This document shows positions 3,609 through 42,778 of a stretch of DNA of 44,163 nt, one piece after another. Below the pieces are notes generated by a model that saw only the letters and a program-made list of their open reading frames with translations, had not been told where the DNA came from and did no database searches. Location: the UHGV virus genome UHGV-0207246. One strand, 5' to 3'. Origin of the DNA: a virus. Both the position numbers and the translations under genes were made by a program. Position 1 is the stretch's first letter. Each line of letters opens with the position of its first letter.

Positions 3609-4223
3609 ATGGCGAAGACTAAATCAGAGATGTTTACCCTTATCGGAGCGAACCTTCCCGATAACACCACCGGGCTTATCACCCCCGAGAAGTTACGCGA
3701 AGTAATGACACAGATGGCCGACTCACCTATTTACGCCACTCCGGGGGTTAAAGAGGTTGAAGTCCTTCGCGCTGCGTCTACCGTAATACAGGCGCCAACA
3801 GCGACGGACACGGCGTTGCAGTTAACTTTCGGCTCCGCTCAGGGAAGTACATCCGACCCGGTAATGATTAATGCTGCGGGGCTGGTTACGTTCAACGCCG
3901 CGGGTAACTACGCCGTTCGCATCAAGTTACAGGCTGGTCGTACTGGTGCGAGCGGGACGTCTATTCTGCTATCACGCATTTTAATAAACGGCACTCAATA
4001 CGGATCTCCGGCAGCTACGAAACTGGTCAGCGCGGATGTGACCATTCCTATTGAATCCCGCGTCGTTATTAACCCTACCGCAGGTCAGACGTTTGCTGTT
4101 CAGATTATGCGAGATAGCGCCGGAACTAACTTCGGCGGCGTATACCCACAAGCAGCTACTGTAACCGCATGGGGCACCGCGCCATCCGCGCTACTGGTTA
4201 TCTCGAGACTGGAGGCCGCGTAA
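3609..4223 (+). CDS. hypothetical structural protein
   Basis: ORF track; synteny within head-tail joining module. Confidence 0.4.
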   Translation: MAKTKSEMFTLIGANLPDNTTGLITPEKLREVMTQMADSPIYATPGVKEVEVLRAASTVIQAPTATDTALQLTFGSAQGSTSDPVMINAAGLVTFNAAGNYAVRIKLQAGRTGASGTSILLSRILINGTQYGSPAATKLVSADVTIPIESRVVINPTAGQTFAVQIMRDSAGTNFGGVYPQAATVTAWGTAPSALLVISRLEAA

Positions 4224-4321
4224 TGAATAAGTTCTTATGGGGCGCAGTTTTTGGTTTTCTTACCGCGGTAGTCTTGCACAGTTACGGTGTTCTTTTGACG
4301 CTGCAAGAGGTGTTAAAATGA
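4223..4321 (+). CDS. hypothetical small hydrophobic peptide (32 aa)
   Basis: TAATG overlap with upstream stop and ATGA overlap with downstream start; RBS GGAGG 8 nt upstream; MNKFLWGAVFGFLTAVVLHSYGVLLTLQEVLK. Confidence 0.3.
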   Translation: MNKFLWGAVFGFLTAVVLHSYGVLLTLQEVLK

Positions 4322-4677
4322 GCACAGCTTTCAGTAAACGTATGCAAGGCGTTGGTACACGCCTGCTAACCAAATTCGGCAGCACAGTATCTCTAATTCG
4401 TTCCGGCTCGAAAGTGTGGGATGAAGTTCTCGGTGAGTACGTCTGGTCTGATGATGAAGTGCTGCCGTTGAATGCCGTCCCGGTTCCGGTAAACGTGGAA
4501 CGGGTAAACGGTACGACGATTCAGGCCGGTGACGTGATTGTTAAAGCCGATTGCAGTGTCGTTCCGAAGATGGAAGACAAGGTGCAATTTGACGGCGGGC
4601 AATGGTCTGTCGTAGCCATCGAGAAGAAGATGGTTAATGGTGATGTCGTAGCCTACTTTATTCAGGTGAGAAAATGA
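4318..4677 (+). CDS. head completion / head-tail joining protein candidate
   Basis: Start at internal ATG with RBS AGAGGTG; synteny. Confidence 0.4.
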   Translation: MSTAFSKRMQGVGTRLLTKFGSTVSLIRSGSKVWDEVLGEYVWSDDEVLPLNAVPVPVNVERVNGTTIQAGDVIVKADCSVVPKMEDKVQFDGGQWSVVAIEKKMVNGDVVAYFIQVRK

Positions 4678-20795: not shown

Positions 20796-20927
20796 TCATT
20801 CCAGCACCCACAGATAAATTGCGATGAACATGCCCAATATGGCAACCATCATGCCGTATTGACCCTCGTGACAGTAGACACCGGCAGCAAATCCCGCCAG
20901 TACCGCGATAATCAGTTTACTTGGCAT
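20796..20927 (-). CDS. small membrane protein (43 aa)
   Basis: RBS AAGGAG 9 nt upstream; hand-translated MPSKLIIAVLAGFAAGVYCHEGQYGMMVAILGMFIAIYLWVLE. Confidence 0.35.
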   Translation of the reverse strand: MPSKLIIAVLAGFAAGVYCHEGQYGMMVAILGMFIAIYLWVLE

Positions 20928-21612
20928 CTCTACATTCTCCTTCAGGCCACCTATTAGGAAAAGACGGTATATGTGAAACTTCTCTCGCCGCTTTTATTCT
21001 TTTAATGGCGGGACCTATCTCCGTGACCATTTCAATGAATGTAAACCGGTGTCCTCTGGTAAGATTACATGTCTGACAACAAGAAACGCAGTTAGATACT
21101 ATGTGCCCGCTTGTATTATCTATGCGGTCTACCCCGACTTTTGTAGTGCTTCCGCAATAATGGCATGGCTGTGATATTAGTTTAATAACGCTTTCCAGTG
21201 TTAAATCGCAGATAAGCCCTTTTCCTGAATCTGCTCTTTTGTATCCTAACAAAAGCGCGTACGCCCGCGTCCTTTGGTCCTTATTCACCAGTTCCCTGCG
21301 TTGCTTGTTGAGACACTCCCGGCAATCTTTCCTGATATGAGAGCCATTACTTTTATTTCCTTTCCTGAAGTTTTCCTCTGTTAAAGGTTTTACCTCCCCA
21401 CACTTTCTGCATTTAACAGGCTTCCCAGTGAAAACATACCAAGGGCTTTCTCGTCTGGATTTACCTTGTAATTTAAGTTTTTCGTCATACTTTTCCTTCC
21501 TGTTAGCATTTACACACTCTTTACACCAGCGTTGCAGCCCGAGGCGCGTTGACTTTGAAAAATACTCTGTAGTCGCCGGTTTATCTTCGCCGCATCTTGA
21601 ACACTTTTTCAT
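20917..21612 (-). CDS. HNH homing endonuclease with two N-terminal Cys4 zinc-ribbon repeats
   Basis: Repeats CSRCGEDKP...CKEC and CRKCGEVKP...CREC then HNH core CHYCG...DRIDNTSGH...CN; start at ATG with RBS GGAG. Confidence 0.7.
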   Translation of the reverse strand: MKKCSRCGEDKPATTEYFSKSTRLGLQRWCKECVNANRKEKYDEKLKLQGKSRRESPWYVFTGKPVKCRKCGEVKPLTEENFRKGNKSNGSHIRKDCRECLNKQRRELVNKDQRTRAYALLLGYKRADSGKGLICDLTLESVIKLISQPCHYCGSTTKVGVDRIDNTSGHIVSNCVSCCQTCNLTRGHRFTFIEMVTEIGPAIKRIKAAREVSHIPSFPNRWPEGECRDAK

Positions 21613-21623
21613 TAATAACTCCA

Positions 21624-21658
21624 AAAAAAAATACCGACATAGCCATTATATCGGTATT
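21624..21658 (-). terminator. rho-independent terminator downstream of DNA polymerase
   Basis: On minus strand ATACCGA-loop-TCGGTAT followed by T9. Confidence 0.5.
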
Positions 21659-31836: not shown

Positions 31837-31867
31837 TCATTTACACAAACGAGAGGAGAGACGGAAG

Positions 31868-32035
31868 ATGAAAGAAGTAACTAAAGATGAGTTTTTCAGC
31901 ACAGTAGAAGGTCTTATGTATCACATGGTTATTAATGCGGGTACGCCAGAGTCTATCTACATAGATAGCGGTAATAATCTTGTCGCTAAAGCAACATGGG
32001 GTTACCCGGAAACTTTGTATGAGGTTGCGCAATGA
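31868..32035 (+). CDS. hypothetical small protein (55 aa)
   Basis: RBS GAGAGGAGAG; ATGA overlap with next gene. Confidence 0.4.
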   Translation: MKEVTKDEFFSTVEGLMYHMVINAGTPESIYIDSGNNLVAKATWGYPETLYEVAQ

Positions 32036-32259
32036 CCCCCGCAAAAGCACGTGCGCTGTTACGCCGCAAGGGGATTCTCGATGAGGTGGACATCCTTGTA
32101 GAGAGATACGGCATCCACATGATAGGTCGCCAGTCGAAAGGTGATATGCGTTGGATGGCGGGTATCCCTGGTACGCCAGGCGTGTCATACGGCGACACAT
32201 TAACCCATGCGGTCCATACTTACATTATTGAGTCGGTGTTAGGGGAAACCAATGAGTAA
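32032..32259 (+). CDS. hypothetical protein
   Basis: ORF track. Confidence 0.45.
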   Translation: MTPAKARALLRRKGILDEVDILVERYGIHMIGRQSKGDMRWMAGIPGTPGVSYGDTLTHAVHTYIIESVLGETNE

Positions 32260-33065: not shown

Positions 33066-33370
33066 TGGTTGACGCGTATATCTATTGGAGCGGGATAGCT
33101 TTTAATTTCACCCTTGTCGCCGCGTTTCTTTGGGCGCTTTGGTGTTGGGTACTATTCCCTGCTGTAGAAGCCGCCAGCATGGCACGGTACTACAGAAGAC
33201 TCGGGAAAGTGCACAGGATTAAAGTGCACAACTGGTTCAGGCTCTTCCTCGCTAACTACGAATTGTTTGGGCGCACGTTCACAGCGCAGCGGTGTGCCTA
33301 CGGATACTGGGAAGGAGTGGGGCAATGGGTCGTATTTCCTGCGGAGGATGAGAATGAGCCTCGCAACTGA
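33065..33370 (+). CDS. small membrane protein
   Basis: TGATG overlap; hydrophobic segment IAFNFTLVAAFLWALWCWVLFPAV. Confidence 0.4.
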   Translation: MVDAYIYWSGIAFNFTLVAAFLWALWCWVLFPAVEAASMARYYRRLGKVHRIKVHNWFRLFLANYELFGRTFTAQRCAYGYWEGVGQWVVFPAEDENEPRN

Positions 33371-33647
33371 CATCCTGAAAAGAAGCGGCCTTGCGCCGCT
33401 GTCACCGAGAGCGAACACCAGGATATACAAGCGCCGAGGTAACGCGCTGTACCCTGAGATTCAGGCCAGACGCAAAGCTGTCCGCGCCTGTGGGTTCCAG
33501 AACGGGAAGGCCGTGAATCTGGGTGAGTTCAAGACAAAGGAACGCGCAGCAATCGCTAACCGGCTATTTAATTACTGGAAATCGCTGGGATACGAGGATA
33601 TTCCAACGAAACCGCAGAGACGACAATACATCTGGAGACATAAATGA
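33354..33647 (+). CDS. AP2-like DNA-binding domain protein candidate
   Basis: Motif NGKAVNLGEFKTKERAAIANRLFNYWKSLGY resembles AP2-type domains; RBS GGAGG. Confidence 0.35.
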   Translation: MSLATDILKRSGLAPLSPRANTRIYKRRGNALYPEIQARRKAVRACGFQNGKAVNLGEFKTKERAAIANRLFNYWKSLGYEDIPTKPQRRQYIWRHK

Positions 33648-34084
33648 CGACTATCGCGTTTGACGGAAAGACAATGGCATGTGACACGCGTGTTGTGTGC
33701 GGGAGTAACTGTTACAACACAGACACGAAGATATACGAGAACGATTTTGCTGTTATCGGGGTGGCTGGTGATGCGGGGGTAGGGGATATTCTCGTTGGTG
33801 ACCGAGGAATTTTAGTGCCAAAGCGCTATGACTTCGATTTCGAAGCTCTGGTGTTCGTGAAAGACACAGAAAAGGTGTACAAAGTCGCGTTTTATAAATC
33901 GTGGGATTGTGCACTTAGTTCAGTTATTCCGGTTGCCGATAGTTTTTCAGCCGTGGGGTCTGGTTCTCCTTATGCACTGGCAGCTATGGAATGTGGATAC
34001 TCGGCACACGGTGGTGTAGCCGTTGCGTCGAAGTTCGACACTAACACCGGCGGCAAGATTATTACCAAACAACTATTAGGATAA
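33644..34084 (+). CDS. HslV/proteasome beta-subunit-like Ntn hydrolase peptidase
   Basis: N-terminal MTTI (Thr nucleophile after Met removal), IGVAGDAGVGD and SAVGSGSPYALAAME paralleling E. coli HslV motifs. Confidence 0.5.
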   Translation: MTTIAFDGKTMACDTRVVCGSNCYNTDTKIYENDFAVIGVAGDAGVGDILVGDRGILVPKRYDFDFEALVFVKDTEKVYKVAFYKSWDCALSSVIPVADSFSAVGSGSPYALAAMECGYSAHGGVAVASKFDTNTGGKIITKQLLG

Positions 34085-34143
34085 TTCCTAACCGTGGTAT
34101 CCTCCAGTTACTGCATACTTAATACGCACCTGGAGGATTCATC

Positions 34144-34452
34144 TTGGATAAATTTACTGAAACAGTGACAGGCTGGCTTCTGGCTGCCGCACTAGCCGGT
34201 GGGGTAATCGGACTACGACAACATAAGTCCGTTATTTCTGGCCCTATCGACGGCTTCTGCTTTATCGCTACTGGCTTCACTTGTGCCGTATTTGGCGCAC
34301 CTCTCGCAGCTCAATGGTTCGGTATCACTGGCGACCGTGAAATCGCTGGCCTGGGCTTCATTATCGCTATTCTCTGGATGCCTATCTATTCCCGTCTCTC
34401 TGGTATCGTCGCCGGAGAATACATTGCACGTCGAGGAGGCACAGATGAATGA
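34144..34452 (+). CDS. holin candidate (three hydrophobic segments)
   Basis: TTG start after RBS GGAGGA; membrane protein directly upstream of second membrane protein and endolysin. Confidence 0.5.
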   Translation: MDKFTETVTGWLLAAALAGGVIGLRQHKSVISGPIDGFCFIATGFTCAVFGAPLAAQWFGITGDREIAGLGFIIAILWMPIYSRLSGIVAGEYIARRGGTDE

Positions 34453-34717
34453 GCTATTCTGGTTCGGCGGTATGCTGGTAATAGGAGGCACATCGCTGTT
34501 TAATGTATATCACCCCAGCGTGGACGACGGGTTATTCGGTCGGGTGCTCTATATCCTGACTGCCATCGTCTGTGCTGCCGGATGTATACACCTGTTACAG
34601 AGCAGCATGTCACCAACGCTGCCTGAGACGTTAATCACATTAGTTGCGCTGCGTCAGATTCGTCAGGCGTGGCTGTCATACGGAGGACATAAGCGTGTCT
34701 CGAAACATTTCAGATAA
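34445..34717 (+). CDS. second lysis membrane protein (holin/antiholin candidate)
   Basis: Two hydrophobic segments; overlaps holin stop and endolysin start. Confidence 0.45.
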   Translation: MNELFWFGGMLVIGGTSLFNVYHPSVDDGLFGRVLYILTAIVCAAGCIHLLQSSMSPTLPETLITLVALRQIRQAWLSYGGHKRVSKHFR

Positions 34718-35180
34718 TGGATTGCATTTTACCGCCGCGTTCGAGGGATTCCGCGGTACCGCGTATCGCGCTACCCCAAATGAGAAGTACCTGACTATAG
34801 GCTACGGTCACTACGGGCCAGACGTAACACCAGGTAAGACCATCACCCCGGGGCAAGGCCTCCTGTTACTGAACCGTGATATGGCTAAGGCCGTAGCTGC
34901 GGTTGATGCAGCGGCGCACCATTCACTGACACAGGCGCAGTTCGACGCAGTGTGTGACCTGGTGTATAACGCTGGCGCTGGCGTGATTGCGTCTACTACG
35001 GGCACAGGCAAGGCACTGCGTTCTGGTGATACTGCAACACTGCGGGCTAAGCTGGCACTGTTCATCAACCAGAACGGCAAACCACTACTTGGCCTGCGTC
35101 GCCGTACAGCCGGGCGGCTGGCATTGTTCAACGGTAAACCGTGGCAGGAGGCGGAGGCTATTGGGAGGGCTGTTAAATGA
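34695..35180 (+). CDS. endolysin, GH24-type lysozyme
   Basis: Motif TAAFEGFRGTAYRATPNEKYLTIGYGHYG; GTG start after RBS GGAGGA. Confidence 0.7.
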   Translation: MSRNISDNGLHFTAAFEGFRGTAYRATPNEKYLTIGYGHYGPDVTPGKTITPGQGLLLLNRDMAKAVAAVDAAAHHSLTQAQFDAVCDLVYNAGAGVIASTTGTGKALRSGDTATLRAKLALFINQNGKPLLGLRRRTAGRLALFNGKPWQEAEAIGRAVK

Positions 35181-37261: not shown

Positions 37262-37774
37262 ATGAAGCTGAAACTTAAGCAGCCATCACCAGAGGTGGTG
37301 CAAGCTGCACATGAAGAAGCTGTTAGCGCAAACCGTCGCCGTAAACGACCGCGCGGTAAACAGAGCCTTTATCAATCATCCCGTAATTCCGCCGCGTTGT
37401 GGGACCCGGACTATTGCGACGAATTGATTCGTTTCTTCGACCGCACGTCGTGGGAACTTGTACCTACGTCTAAGGGTGACGAACGCCCCCTTATTCAGGA
37501 TAAGCCGCCGTCATTGGCCCGCTTTGCCTTACACATCGGCGTCACTATCCCGATTATTAAGCTGTGGTTGCGCGAGATTCCAGCATTTGCGGAAGCCTAT
37601 GAAACAGCACAGGCGCTGGAAGAGGCGTATTTCACTGAGACAGGGGCTGCGGGTATCTCCGCTACGTTTGCTGCCGCGAAACTGGGGCTGAATAAGAAAG
37701 AAGAATCGACTGGCGAGGGTTCTGAACCTATCGAGATTCGTTTTGTTAAGGCTGTTAAACCGGGGGTGGAGTAA
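37262..37774 (+). CDS. terS: terminase small subunit
   Basis: About 170 aa gene immediately upstream of and overlapping the large terminase; RBS AAGGGGA. Confidence 0.55.
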   Translation: MKLKLKQPSPEVVQAAHEEAVSANRRRKRPRGKQSLYQSSRNSAALWDPDYCDELIRFFDRTSWELVPTSKGDERPLIQDKPPSLARFALHIGVTIPIIKLWLREIPAFAEAYETAQALEEAYFTETGAAGISATFAAAKLGLNKKEESTGEGSEPIEIRFVKAVKPGVE

Positions 37775-39009
37775 TGGATATCCCATTAACCGAACCCCAA
37801 CAAGACTTTGTATTCAGCACAAAAACACATCCGGCTATTGTCGCAGGACTGGGGGCGGGTAAGTCCCGCGCGGCAACGATGCGCCTTTTGTATCTTATGT
37901 TGCGCGAGCGCGGGATAAACACCCTGTACACCATGCCTACGTATGACCTGTTGAAGCTGCGCGCCATCCCTGGTGTGGTTGATGACCTGAATATGATGGG
38001 GCTTAAGTATGACCTCAACAAATCGGAATACAGTATCCACGTTAAGGGGTACGGTACTATGTTTTTCAGGTCATACGACAACCCGAACCGTCTAATCGCT
38101 TTTGAAGTAGCCCATTCTGTCGCCGATGAACTTGACGTTCTTACTAAAGAACAGGCGTCTCTGGTGTGGCGTAAAATTTCAGAGCGTACCCGACAGCCTT
38201 GCAGAGGGGGTAACAGTATTGCCGCTGTGACTACCCCTGACCAGGGATTCTCTGGATTTGTGTATGACTATTGGGTCACTAACGCTGACAGTTCTACGGA
38301 ACTGATTAAGGCGTCTACATTGTCGAACCCATATTTACCTGACGGCTACGTCGAACAGATACGCAGGAACTACGATGCGGCTTTAGCCGATATGTATATC
38401 AACGGTGAATTTGTCAGTTTGACTGCTAATAAGGTGTATCACTATTTCAAACGAAGCACCCATGACTCCACTCGCACCTTGCGGAACGGAGATGCGCTCC
38501 ACATAGGGCTGGACTTTAATATTGGTGGATGTTGCGCCACCGTGAGCGTTATCGAAGACGGCAACCCGACGGTTGTTGATGAGTTTGTCAGCCATAATAC
38601 CGACGACTTCGTCAATAATGTCAGGATACGGTATCCAGGCCATACGGTTACGGTTTACCCTGACGCGTCTGGTCGCTCAGGCCACACTAACGCATCATTA
38701 TCCGACATAGGTATCATCGAAAAGGCCGGCTTACGCGTTAACGCTCCAAGTAAGAACCCATTCGTTAAAGACAGAATAAACGCGGTTAACGCTCTTTTGT
38801 CGCATAGCCGTTTGAGGGTTAACACTTCAAAATGCCCTAAACTAACGCAGTCACTGGAGACGCAGGGGTATAACGATAATGGTGAACCAGAGAAGTTTAA
38901 AACCCACCCGGCGATTGACGACTGGAACGACAGTTTAGGCTATTGTATGCATAGGTTGTTCCCTGTTGTTCGCCCTGTTATCAATACACCAGTTCGTTTC
39001 GCACTTTAA
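37774..39009 (+). CDS. terL: terminase large subunit
   Basis: Walker A-like GLGAGKS near N-terminus; position between terS and portal. Confidence 0.7.
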   Translation: MDIPLTEPQQDFVFSTKTHPAIVAGLGAGKSRAATMRLLYLMLRERGINTLYTMPTYDLLKLRAIPGVVDDLNMMGLKYDLNKSEYSIHVKGYGTMFFRSYDNPNRLIAFEVAHSVADELDVLTKEQASLVWRKISERTRQPCRGGNSIAAVTTPDQGFSGFVYDYWVTNADSSTELIKASTLSNPYLPDGYVEQIRRNYDAALADMYINGEFVSLTANKVYHYFKRSTHDSTRTLRNGDALHIGLDFNIGGCCATVSVIEDGNPTVVDEFVSHNTDDFVNNVRIRYPGHTVTVYPDASGRSGHTNASLSDIGIIEKAGLRVNAPSKNPFVKDRINAVNALLSHSRLRVNTSKCPKLTQSLETQGYNDNGEPEKFKTHPAIDDWNDSLGYCMHRLFPVVRPVINTPVRFAL

Positions 39010-40766: not shown

Positions 40767-40795
40767 AATAGTACCCTATTATATTGGTGTCTGCA
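40767..40795 (-). promoter_or_regulatory. class I early-type promoter (TTGCAG-17-TACTAT)
   Basis: Reverse complement TTGCAGACACCAATATAATAGGGTACTAT; same region may carry a rightward TCGATA-17-TATATT promoter. Confidence 0.55.
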
Positions 40796-40840
40796 AATAT
40801 TATTTTTATGCGTTACACTGGCGATACTACAGGAGGGCAT

Positions 40841-42778
40841 ATGAGCTTACTTACATCCCTAATCAGCCACCAGATATGGCTGCAACGCACCGCATCCGGC
40901 GAAGTGAAAGACCTCACACCGTTCATTCAGGAGATGCGGGATGAAATCAAACGGCAGGTGCTGTTATTCGGTGACGACGGGCGAAGCACTGCGCGACTGA
41001 ATAAATTGTTACGCGACCTAGAAGAAGCACTGACAGGACTTACGGGTGACTGGCAAACAAAGCTGACAGAAGACCTTAAGGACCTGGCGGCGTATGAGGC
41101 TGAGTGGAATGTAAAGACACTCACGGCCAACGTCAACGCTGAATTTGTTACGCCTACTGCCGAACAGGTGTGGGCCGCTGCCGAGTTTCAGCCTCTGTCG
41201 TTAAGCGACAAGCCAGTAGATTTCACTAAGCTGATGGGTGGCTGGGGTGAAACAGAAGTATCGCGCCTGGTAACTGGCGTTAAGATGGGCTTTGTTCAGG
41301 GTCAAACCACACGGCAGATTGTTAAGAATGTTGTAGGCGCTGGCGGACTGGCCGACATCTCTGAGCGTAACGCCGCTACCGTAATACGTACGGCGCTGGC
41401 TCACGTATCCAACGAAGCCCGTAACGAGACGTACCGCCAGAACGACGACATCATCGAGAAATACGAGTGGGTGTCAACGCTGGACAGCCGTACCAGTACA
41501 ACGTGTTTCACGGCTGAAACAGAATTAGCGCCCATCGCGGGGATGGACGCGGTAATGCGCGGACTCTATTCAGGAAAAATCTTTACCATCGAACTTTCCA
41601 ACGGCGAGAAGTTCAGTGGCACCCCGAAACACCCTGTACTCACGCAATACGGATGGACTCCGCTTGATGAACTCGATCCAACTAAGCATGTCTTGTATAC
41701 CACTGTTGACAAAGTGACTGTGCTCGAAACAGTGAAGAACATAAACATGCCAGCCAGAGCGGATTATATTTTTAATACGCTCGCTGATTTCCCCATCAGG
41801 AAAATGGTAAGCACGAGTCCCGCGGCAACAGATTTCTATGGCGATGGAGTGGGACTCAATGGCAAAATCGACATTGTACGGGCCGATTGCAAACTGCGGA
41901 ACTACGTCCACGCCAGCGGAATTAAACAATTCAAAAGCGAGGGTTTCAGTCTTATTCATAGCGCCGCTTTGCTGTCGGACGATAGCTCTGGCGATTTTCT
42001 CCTCCGGGGTGAATGTCCTGTGAGTGTGCCCGCGCTTAGCGAGGCCAAGTGTTTTGACCATAGAATAGAAAACTGTTTTGCTTACTTGGGTCCTTCTTAT
42101 GCACTCAATAGGCGGGACGCCGGACTCGAACAATTCTATAGCCCTTTTTTGATTCAAAATGGTGTCGTTAGAAACCCAACCACGGGGTCGATCATGCATG
42201 AGTCCGAGCTTCTTGAGAAATGTTGTTACCGTGGTGGTAGTGACGCCGTAATTCTTGGCTATGATGCTGGCGGGAGTGCCATCTCGGTACAAAGAACAAA
42301 TATCATCCGCATAAGCGTCGAGTTTAGAACGTGCCATGTTTATACCCTCTCTAGTAGTCAAGGATATTATACAGCAGGTAGTGCGATAGTCAAGAATTGC
42401 AGGGCCAGAGACGGAATGACGTGGGAAATTGGAAAAGGGCCGATGCCGCCAGCGCATCCGAATTGCAGAAGTACCACGGCCCCGGTGATTAGCTCGGAGT
42501 TCGACTTCCTTGATAAAGGCGCAAAACGCGCGGCACGCGGGGCGGACGGCGGTACTCAGGTAAGCGCGGACACAACCTACTACGAGTTCCTTAAACAACA
42601 GCCCGCATGGTTTCAGGACCAGGCGCTCGGCCCTGTTCGCGGTAAGATTTTCCGTAACAGCGGTATATCACCAGAGGAGTTTCGCGTAATATCTGTAGAT
42701 GGTTTTGGGCGTCCGCTCACGCTTAAGCAGATGGCGGAACTCGATAAACGTGTTGCTGATTATCTGAAAGGGGAATAA
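40841..42778 (+). CDS. head morphogenesis protein (Mu F / SPP1 gp7-like) containing a 298-codon intein
   Basis: RBS AGGAGGG; extein motif LDSRTSTT | C RARDGMTWEIGKGPMPPAHPNCRS is contiguous only after removing residues 241-538 of the track ORF. Confidence 0.6.
   Translation: MSLLTSLISHQIWLQRTASGEVKDLTPFIQEMRDEIKRQVLLFGDDGRSTARLNKLLRDLEEALTGLTGDWQTKLTEDLKDLAAYEAEWNVKTLTANVNAEFVTPTAEQVWAAAEFQPLSLSDKPVDFTKLMGGWGETEVSRLVTGVKMGFVQGQTTRQIVKNVVGAGGLADISERNAATVIRTALAHVSNEARNETYRQNDDIIEKYEWVSTLDSRTSTTCFTAETELAPIAGMDAVMRGLYSGKIFTIELSNGEKFSGTPKHPVLTQYGWTPLDELDPTKHVLYTTVDKVTVLETVKNINMPARADYIFNTLADFPIRKMVSTSPAATDFYGDGVGLNGKIDIVRADCKLRNYVHASGIKQFKSEGFSLIHSAALLSDDSSGDFLLRGECPVSVPALSEAKCFDHRIENCFAYLGPSYALNRRDAGLEQFYSPFLIQNGVVRNPTTGSIMHESELLEKCCYRGGSDAVILGYDAGGSAISVQRTNIIRISVEFRTCHVYTLSSSQGYYTAGSAIVKNCRARDGMTWEIGKGPMPPAHPNCRSTTAPVISSEFDFLDKGAKRAARGADGGTQVSADTTYYEFLKQQPAWFQDQALGPVRGKIFRNSGISPEEFRVISVDGFGRPLTLKQMAELDKRVADYLKGE
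41570..42337 (-). CDS. antisense gene inside the intein: tandem HTH DNA-binding repeats plus DUF559 (Vsr-like PD-(D/E)XK) endonuclease, candidate homing endonuclease
   Basis: IGPYNVDFA...IAIEI...GWHVYVL pattern matches DUF559 (GGYRLDFA...LAVEVDG...GWRVLRF); HTH segments ASIIAKNYGVTTTTVTTFLKKLGL and IECIRRTQVSKTVFYSMVKTLGL; RBS GAGGG 7 nt before ATG. Confidence 0.55.
   Translation of the reverse strand: MARSKLDAYADDICSLYRDGTPASIIAKNYGVTTTTVTTFLKKLGLMHDRPRGWVSNDTILNQKRAIELFESGVPPIECIRRTQVSKTVFYSMVKTLGLAKRGHTHRTFTPEEKIARAIVRQQSGAMNKTETLAFELFNSAGVDVVPQFAIGPYNVDFAIESHSIAIEICCRGTRAYHFPDGEISERIKNIIRSGWHVYVLHCFEHSHFVNSGIQDMLSWIEFIKRSPSVLREYRVFRGATELLAVGKFDGKDFS
42366..42393 (-). promoter_or_regulatory. 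promoter for the antisense endonuclease gene (TTGACT-16-TATAAT), encoded within intein blocks F/G
   Basis: Minus strand TTGACTATCGCACTACCTGCTGTATAAT about 30 nt upstream of the antisense ATG. Confidence 0.5.

Follow-up and report, generated by a model that had tools for sequence, protein, structure and literature searches.

The window analysed here, the 44,163-nucleotide virus genome UHGV-0207246, is a complete or near-complete genome of a Kagunavirus-type siphophage (Guernseyvirinae). Directly upstream of its lysis cassette of two holin genes and an endolysin gene lies a plus-strand open reading frame (ORF) of 146 amino acids (full translation, MTTIAFDGKTMACDTRVVCGSNCYNTDTKIYENDFAVIGVAGDAGVGDILVGDRGILVPKRYDFDFEALVFVKDTEKVYKVAFYKSWDCALSSVIPVADSFSAVGSGSPYALAAMECGYSAHGGVAVASKFDTNTGGKIITKQLLG). 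The protein begins with MTTIAFDGK and contains the motifs IGVAGDAGVGD (residues 38–48) and SAVGSGSPYALAAME (residues 102–116). An earlier note on this DNA had described the ORF, its MTTI start, both motifs, and its position ahead of the lysis genes, all of which we find as claimed, and had read the product as an HslV-like N-terminal nucleophile (Ntn) peptidase. The gene is a conserved phage mini-proteasome homolog (PPH) of an already known family, so that the sighting was correct but not new. The ATG of the PPH gene (33644–33646) overlaps the TGA stop codon of the preceding gene (33645–33647) in the arrangement ATGA, indicating that both genes are probably translationally coupled.

The best nucleotide matches to the PPH region show 87–92% identity. 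Relatives occur in ∼300 GenBank phage records (tblastn) and in 294 clusters at 90% identity, and metagenomes yield 1,479 representatives at 50% identity (E ≤ 1e-3), most of them 135–155 amino acids long; 399 relatives were confirmed in IMG/VR. The ratio of nonsynonymous to synonymous substitution rates (dN/dS) of the PPH gene in pairwise comparison with Kagunavirus relatives is 0.04–0.20. This breadth of relatives together with the low dN/dS shows that the ORF did not arise by chance, and the gene is under purifying selection.

Profile searches, a structure model, and residue conservation firmly support the reading of the product as an Ntn hydrolase of the proteasome/HslV type whose nucleophile is an N-terminal threonine. 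The protein matches phrog_1040 (“peptidase HslV family”) with E = 1.7e-34 over residues 1–143; the profile itself has 277 positions. Searches with the single sequence were too weak to place the fold (phmmer against the PDB, E = 0.1–0.5 for proteasome β, BPH, and HslV; NCBIfam, trace matches only), and the question was settled by a family profile and the structure model. The profile was built from an alignment of the query and 104 diverse representatives that are 30–41% identical to it. Against the PDB, it retrieved the archaeal proteasome β subunit (1.5e-11), β5i (2.7e-11), Thermotoga HslV (1.7e-10), and BPH (1.9e-9), and the matches run from Thr1 to Thr1.

The predicted model of the window PPH agrees with the profile search and assumes the αββα sandwich of the Ntn hydrolases. 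It comprises the β-sandwich and helices H3 (residues 108–116) and H4 (residues 121–131), and its last element is a strand (residues 139–143), so that the C-terminal S12/H5 is absent. Between strands S4 and S5, the model contains one five-residue helix (residues 46–50), followed by a lower-confidence loop (predicted local distance difference test score, pLDDT, ∼67 for residues 51–60). About 18 residues of the H1/H2 region of HslV have no counterpart in the PPH alignment. According to the model, helix H2 and the greater part of H1 are missing from PPH.

The residues that align with the active site of proteasome β subunits and HslV are listed in Table 1, with counts from 146 representatives, each from a separate 50%-identity cluster. 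Lys29 is also invariant in the alignment used for the family profile. The protein starts with Met-Thr in 136 of the 146 representatives, indicating that removal of Met1 alone exposes the nucleophile, as in Escherichia coli HslV. Methionine aminopeptidase cleaves a methionine that precedes threonine.

Table 1. Features of the PPH locus in the window and conservation of the active-site positions among 146 PPH representatives
Feature	Position	Strand	Remarks
PPH-family proteasome-like Ntn threonine hydrolase, coding sequence	33644..34084	+	146 amino acids; ATG start; TAA stop included
Thr2 codon, nucleophile (Thr1 after loss of Met1)	33647..33649	+	T 143/146, S 2/146
Asp14 codon, proteasome/HslV Asp17	33683..33685	+	D 143/146, E 3/146
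Lys29 codon, Lys33	33728..33730	+	K 146/146
Gly39-Val-Ala-Gly42; Gly39 is oxyanion-hole Gly47 (HslV Gly45)	33758..33769	+	By alignment; Gly39: G 105/146, A 33/146; Gly42: G 144/146
Gly105-Ser106-Gly107, proteasome G-S129-G (HslV Ser124)	33956..33964	+	G105 146/146; S106 134/146 (T in 6); G107 146/146
Asp132-Thr-Asn-Thr135-Gly136, proteasome β Asp166-x-x-Ser169-Gly170	34037..34051	+	Aligned to RD..SGG of β5i; Asp132: D 141/146; Thr135: T 106/146, S 26/146; Gly136: G 136/146
Residues 44–62, predicted vestigial H1 and loop replacing H1/H2	33773..33829	+	DSSP, pLDDT, entropy, nonsynonymous rate (dN)
GGAG ribosome-binding site	33634..33637	+	6 nt 5′ of the PPH ATG; read from the sequence
Upstream gene, phrog_9632	33354..33647	+	97 amino acids; context, outside the enzyme
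Hairpin AUCCUCCAG/N22/CUGGAGGAU	34099..34138	+	3′ arm holds the Shine-Dalgarno sequence of the holin gene (34132–34136)
Lysis cassette	34144..35180	+	phrog_2359, phrog_2508, PF00959/phrog_33703; boundaries by comparison with a relative
Holin, phrog_2359	34144..34452	+	TTG start
Second holin, phrog_2508	about 34445..34717	+	
Lysozyme-family endolysin, PF00959/phrog_33703	about 34695..35180	+	

The PPH family was described in 2021 by bioinformatics (Fuchs et al. 2021, PMC8665760). Its authors saw neither an informative gene context nor an AAA+ partner that co-occurs with PPH, and the family is carried by phages whose hosts belong to several phyla (PMC8665760). Published PPHs are compact proteins of ∼140 amino acids from tailed phages or prophages; they lack H2 and S12/H5, conserve Thr1, Asp17, Lys33, and Gly47, and have no AAA+ partner, and the window protein shares these features. 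It also shows the affinity of PPH Group I, which radiates from BPH and is related to HslV; BPH is the nearest solved structure. Membership was assigned by these features; the published representative of the family is WP_042125023.1. The window protein shows no substantive difference from the published family. In the model, H1 of its lineage is cut to ∼5 residues. The tryptophan that is typical of the family at position 53 (99/146) is an aspartate in the window protein, and a β-hairpin carries a seven-residue insertion (residues 81–87).

The gene is nearly universal in Guernseyvirinae and present in every genome of this group inspected, including those of two Kagunaviruses in which it is annotated merely as hypothetical. 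In close Kagunavirus and Jerseyvirus relatives, GenBank names the product “peptidase HslV family protein”, “HslV family peptidase”, “ATP-dependent protease”, or “protease”, and IMG lists distant members as “ATP-dependent protease HslVU peptidase subunit” or “20S proteasome alpha/beta subunit”. BFVD contains 39 viral structure clusters with the PPH fold (E ≤ 1e-3), none of them characterised. A stand-alone peptidase of this type had struck the earlier note as unusual; the naming of the family in 2021, its entry as PHROG 1040, its annotation in relatives, and its very wide distribution speak otherwise. Our literature search brought up nothing beyond the bioinformatic paper of 2021 and routine reports of genomes; experimental work on a PPH or a phage HslV-like protein was not found, and neither were gene-essentiality data for PPH. 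Phage seszw from the CiPGr study was dropped as a source of essentiality data, as it is a Skatevirus and lies outside the Guernseyvirinae. A virion preparation of Jerseyvirus T102 contained endolysin peptides and is therefore uninformative. A PPH-like domain also forms part of the chain in phage proteins of ∼260–280 amino acids, such as that at 3689–4519 of locus L003 (Aeromonas phage vB_AceP_PAc) and BFVD matches of 258–279 amino acids, and these proteins may be ‘RPC’ relatives with C-terminal extensions.

The window protein is not an HslV orthologue. It has no match at E ≤ 0.01 to the HslV equivalog hidden Markov models TIGR03692 and NF003964, and a relative scored 18.9 bits against an HslV equivalog model with a cut-off of 157.75. 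HslV has ∼175 amino acids (171–198 in PDB chains, e.g. 1m4y and 1e94), uses H1/H2 as the docking surface and C-tail pocket for HslU, and is encoded in an operon with hslU, whereas the window PPH has 146 amino acids, no HslU gene, and, by the model, has lost the docking layer. In HslV of E. coli and Haemophilus influenzae, the pocket for the HslU C-tail is formed by Phe54, Phe57, Ala79/Lys80, and Gln114 (PMC6429459). By an approximate alignment, the corresponding positions in PPH are Asp48, Val51, the absent H2, and Pro96, and the pocket residues are not conserved. In profile and structure searches, the window PPH is about equally distant from BPH, proteasome β, and HslV. BPH (PDB codes 5ovs, 5ovt, and 5ovu), a cellular protein of ∼185–200 amino acids, has complete H1/H2 helices as well as a long acidic pore loop and forms a double heptameric ring, whereas PPH is phage-borne. 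The β subunits of the 20S proteasome (archaeal; eukaryotic β5/β5i) have ∼200 amino acids, usually carry propeptides, need α rings, and possess H1/H2 and often H5. To our knowledge, PPH is the smallest proteasome-like protein.

The fold and the threonine nucleophile of the earlier description thus stand, as do the observations that the protein is shorter than HslV and that the window holds no HslU partner gene; a specific kinship with HslV does not, given the missing equivalog match, the lost pocket, and the equal distances. The label ‘HslV family / ATP-dependent protease’ is misleading for a protein that is no orthologue of HslV and no longer has the layer on which HslU docks.

No AAA+ unfoldase gene was found in the window: the ORFs of at least 110 amino acids all correspond to annotated genes of relatives, none of them for an AAA+ unfoldase, apart from ORF 20917–21624, which was checked separately, and ORF 31841–32200 (119 amino acids, minus strand, lying over plus-strand genes), which was not examined. 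Nor was an unfoldase partner found in the annotated relatives, and none recurs across 79 IMG/VR loci. ORF 20917–21624 (minus strand, 235 amino acids) has no counterpart in the relative vB_VIPECOMC04, which carries a DNA methyltransferase at this place; it gave only a sub-threshold match to Stc1 and contains no ATPase domain.

We therefore consider it most probable (about 0.65) that PPH is a threonine peptidase that has no dedicated AAA+ partner and is made around the transition to late infection. The analysis establishes homology and fold, the retention of the catalytic residues, purifying selection, the missing partner gene, and the genomic contexts; catalytic activity, oligomeric state, ATPase independence, and timing are inferred, and the mechanism given here follows the known chemistry of proteasome β subunits and HslV. 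Host methionine aminopeptidase would remove Met1, no propeptide being involved, and Thr2 would become the free N-terminal nucleophile. Its hydroxyl group would then attack the scissile bond, with a proton relay probably formed by its own α-amine and by Lys29 and Asp14, the other two members of the triad, whereas Gly39 would stabilise the oxyanion, and Ser106, Asp132, and Thr135 would brace the active site. In proteasomes, H3 and H4 mediate ring-to-ring contacts (PMC8665760), and their retention makes some homo-oligomer of PPH plausible. As the H1/H2 layer is lost, neither an α ring nor HslU is likely to dock in the canonical way, and this loss together with the missing unfoldase gene indicates that the enzyme most likely functions with no dedicated AAA+ partner. 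In the most likely picture, PPH would be an ATPase-independent peptidase, probably a homo-oligomer, that acts on peptides or loosely folded proteins. The block that follows PPH in the window (holin, holin, endolysin, and then terminase) resembles the start of the late operon of phage lambda, and PPH is the last gene ahead of this lambda-like block. This position, together with the placement of PPH by packaging and head genes elsewhere, points to expression around the late-infection transition.

Several points weigh against this assignment. The window protein scores only 17.8 bits (E = 0.0026) against PF00227 (Proteasome), below the gathering threshold of 22.4. PF00227 is matched by 60 of the 105 family members at E ≤ 0.01, and as the family-profile and structure searches are unambiguous, the low score reflects a limit of sensitivity and does not exclude the fold. 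The alignment of the H1/H2 region is unreliable, which makes the mapping of the pocket residues approximate, and the timing of expression is read from gene order only. The literature search yielded neither biochemical nor genetic data for any PPH. Isolated proteasome β subunits are inactive outside the assembled ring, and the related connectase is a ligase and no protease (PMC8665760). Without H1/H2, rings may assemble differently or not at all.

The contexts of PPH genes were compared in 80 IMG/VR loci that were retrieved with the family alignment, each with ±5 kb of flanking sequence. Neighbouring ORFs were clustered, and recurrent clusters and selected neighbours were annotated with PHROGs. 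Dereplication at 90% PPH identity left 59 groups, 7 from Guernseyvirinae and 52 others. All seven Guernseyvirinae groups adjoin lysis genes. In contrast, a homologue of the Guernseyvirinae endolysin, which served as the sole lysis marker in this tally, lies within four genes of PPH in only 2 of the 52 other groups, showing that the adjacency to lysis genes is lineage-specific and restricted to Guernseyvirinae. Packaging, head, or connector genes (TerS, TerL, portal, head-morphogenesis, scaffold, and major head) lie within the same distance in at least 27 of the 52; another 5 groups are found by ribonucleotide reductase, RtcB, or integrase, and 18 are unannotated. No universal partner gene was found among the IMG/VR loci.

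Outside Guernseyvirinae, one recurrent order is PPH, TerS, TerL, and portal. PPH also lies between TerS and TerL (loci L029, L034–36, and L044), between portal and scaffold followed by the major head protein (L074 and L077), between scaffold and major head protein behind the portal (L080), and in the string Ad1, PPH, Hc1, Neck1, and tail terminator (L051 and L067; in part L028, L050, and L071). More widely, PPH thus tends to adjoin the late packaging and head module or to lie within it. The gene is inserted into conserved packaging, head, and connector strings of unrelated phages, including the slot usually taken by the prohead protease.

These placements could reflect late co-expression, favoured insertion sites for accessory genes, or a role in morphogenesis. 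In the last case, PPH would be a virion-morphogenesis protease that trims or removes scaffold, portal, head, or connector proteins where P22/SPP1-type modules lack a canonical prohead protease. Besides the counts for the 52 groups, its position inside the portal/scaffold/major head, TerS/TerL, and Ad1/Hc1 intervals is consistent with such a role, as is a Kagunavirus relative in which scaffold is encoded by a gene of its own and no prohead protease is annotated. PPH does not share the fold of phage prohead proteases, which is either herpesvirus-assemblin-like (HK97 gp4/T4 gp21) or that of a ClpP-like serine protease. We regard a morphogenetic role as unlikely. Its more specific form, a late, ATPase-independent ‘mini-proteasome’ that acts on virion-assembly proteins, is drawn from recurrent gene placement and appears quite unlikely. 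If true, it would constitute a previously unrecognised Ntn-fold class of morphogenetic proteases.

The segment that replaces H1/H2 is also the most variable part of the protein. Among 120 close homologs (82–97% identical), residues 48–61 are hypervariable, with a mean entropy of 1.04 compared with 0.35–0.41 elsewhere, whereas the catalytic positions are fixed; residues 18–23 and 34–36 form minor hot spots. The segment 48–61 occurs in discrete alleles, such as GDILVGDRGILVPKRY, GTMLIDCPYILQARPY, and GILLVKDDSILVPKHY. Over residues 44–62, dN is 4–10 times higher, yet the synonymous rate (dS) has reached saturation and dN/dS does not exceed 1. Positive selection on this segment was therefore rejected, and the variation points to an exchange between divergent alleles or to a loop under relaxed constraint. 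Among otherwise 82–97% identical proteins, residues 44–62 are apparently swapped like a cassette by recombination.

A strict catalytic core combined with a hypervariable surface segment is also compatible with changing targets of a putative host-takeover or counter-defence protease that would degrade a host protein in the course of infection, for instance an immune sensor, an effector, or a stress regulator. The accessory-gene-like spread of PPH through many unrelated phages and prophages, which the 2021 study also describes (PMC8665760), would fit this role. However, PPH gave no match to PADLOC or anti-defence families, the literature search yielded no experimental link, and with dN/dS not above 1, allele exchange in the loop or relaxed constraint explains the variable segment equally well. 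A counter-defence function is thus improbable.

The same segment bears on the possibility that PPH rings dock to HslU of the host, or to ClpX/ClpA, to form a retargeted ATP-dependent protease. E. coli and Salmonella hosts encode HslU, and PPH is homologous to HslV; the database name ‘ATP-dependent protease’ was acquired by annotation transfer and is no evidence. Such a hijack of the host unfoldase is nevertheless very unlikely. The equivalog models give no match, H2 is absent and H1 vestigial in the model, and the pocket residues are not conserved. Moreover, the segment that would face HslU is the most variable part of PPH, whereas a surface that docks to a host protein is expected to be conserved, and the hosts of PPH-carrying phages belong to several phyla (PMC8665760).

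Upstream of PPH, the phrog_9632 gene (E = 3.1e-54 over residues 30–126 of a longer upstream ORF) has a counterpart of identical length (294-nucleotide coding sequence) in a Kagunavirus relative. Its 97-residue product has no match in Pfam, NCBIfam, or PADLOC, and clustering of neighbouring ORFs (cluster c7) confines the gene to Guernseyvirinae. The protein contains a GKxxxLGxFxTxExAA motif that is, by eye, reminiscent of AP2-type DNA-binding domains. The idea that this coupled protein supplies the missing helices in trans was dropped, given the restriction of its gene to Guernseyvirinae and the AP2-like appearance.

Downstream of PPH, the region 34075–34160 folds with −24.2 kcal/mol (z = −3.4). 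The arms of the hairpin that precedes the holin gene are invariant across Kagunavirus relatives, so that no covariation signal can be read. Jerseyviruses possess at the same junction a non-homologous 13-bp hairpin followed by a T-run, which is terminator-like (L002, about 3945–4000; L008–L010) and also contains a GGAG ahead of a holin gene with a GTG start. The PPH–holin junction looks like a boundary between PPH and the lysis cassette and suggests a conserved translational or transcriptional gating of the latter. A weak σ70-like promoter match (TCGACA-16-GATTAT, 9/12) lies at 34035–34062 inside the 3′ end of PPH, shortly before the hairpin and the holin gene; such matches occur in a number expected by chance.

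The earlier note had also proposed that the peptidase might regulate the timing of lysis, in which case PPH would process or degrade holin, antiholin, endolysin, or spanin. The gene order phrog_9632, PPH, holin, holin, endolysin, small genes, and terminase is indeed kept in both Kagunavirus and Jerseyvirus, although their PPH proteins are only ∼62% identical. This link did not hold up, and we consider it most improbable: the adjacency is confined to Guernseyvirinae, with 2 groups near an endolysin homologue against at least 27 near packaging, head, or connector genes in the other lineages; none of 10 upstream neighbours examined is a lysis gene; and in Jerseyviruses the terminator-like hairpin stands between the PPH and holin genes. 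In addition, holins reside in the membrane, and SAR or secreted endolysins are periplasmic, whereas the PPH sequence contains neither a signal peptide nor a transmembrane segment.

That PPH is no protease at all and instead acts as a connectase-like, sequence-specific transpeptidase/ligase, another amidohydrolase, or a structural or decoy protein is equally far-fetched, even though archaeal connectase is a monomeric ligase with a proteasome-like fold (PMC8665760) and lacks the first helix pair, thus partly sharing the H1/H2 loss of PPH.

Two further observations concern the packaging and head genes of the window. The large terminase (TerL, 37774–39009) shares 99.8% identity with its counterpart in Escherichia phage AV104 and only ∼39% with most other Guernseyvirinae TerL proteins, including those of relatives that are ∼90% identical elsewhere; the packaging module of the window is mosaic. 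As its TerL allele is divergent, counts of TerL and PPH records are unfit to judge whether PPH is a core gene. The ORF at 40784–42778 encodes a head-morphogenesis protein like Mu-F/SPP1 gp7 with 664 amino acids compared with ∼347 in relatives. It gives a sub-threshold match to Pfam Intein_splicing (E = 4.5e-4, residues 254–317) and may carry an intein or homing-element insertion.

Guernseyvirinae are widely proposed for the biocontrol of Salmonella and E. coli, and Kagunaviruses are now part of the BASEL collection, which makes genetics on PPH feasible. For the family, the analysis provides two correctives: the HslV/ATP-dependent label misleads, and the adjacency to lysis genes belongs to one lineage. 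The residual interest lies in the function of a very widespread viral mini-proteasome (∼1,500 representatives at 50% identity) and in the pattern of its genomic contexts.

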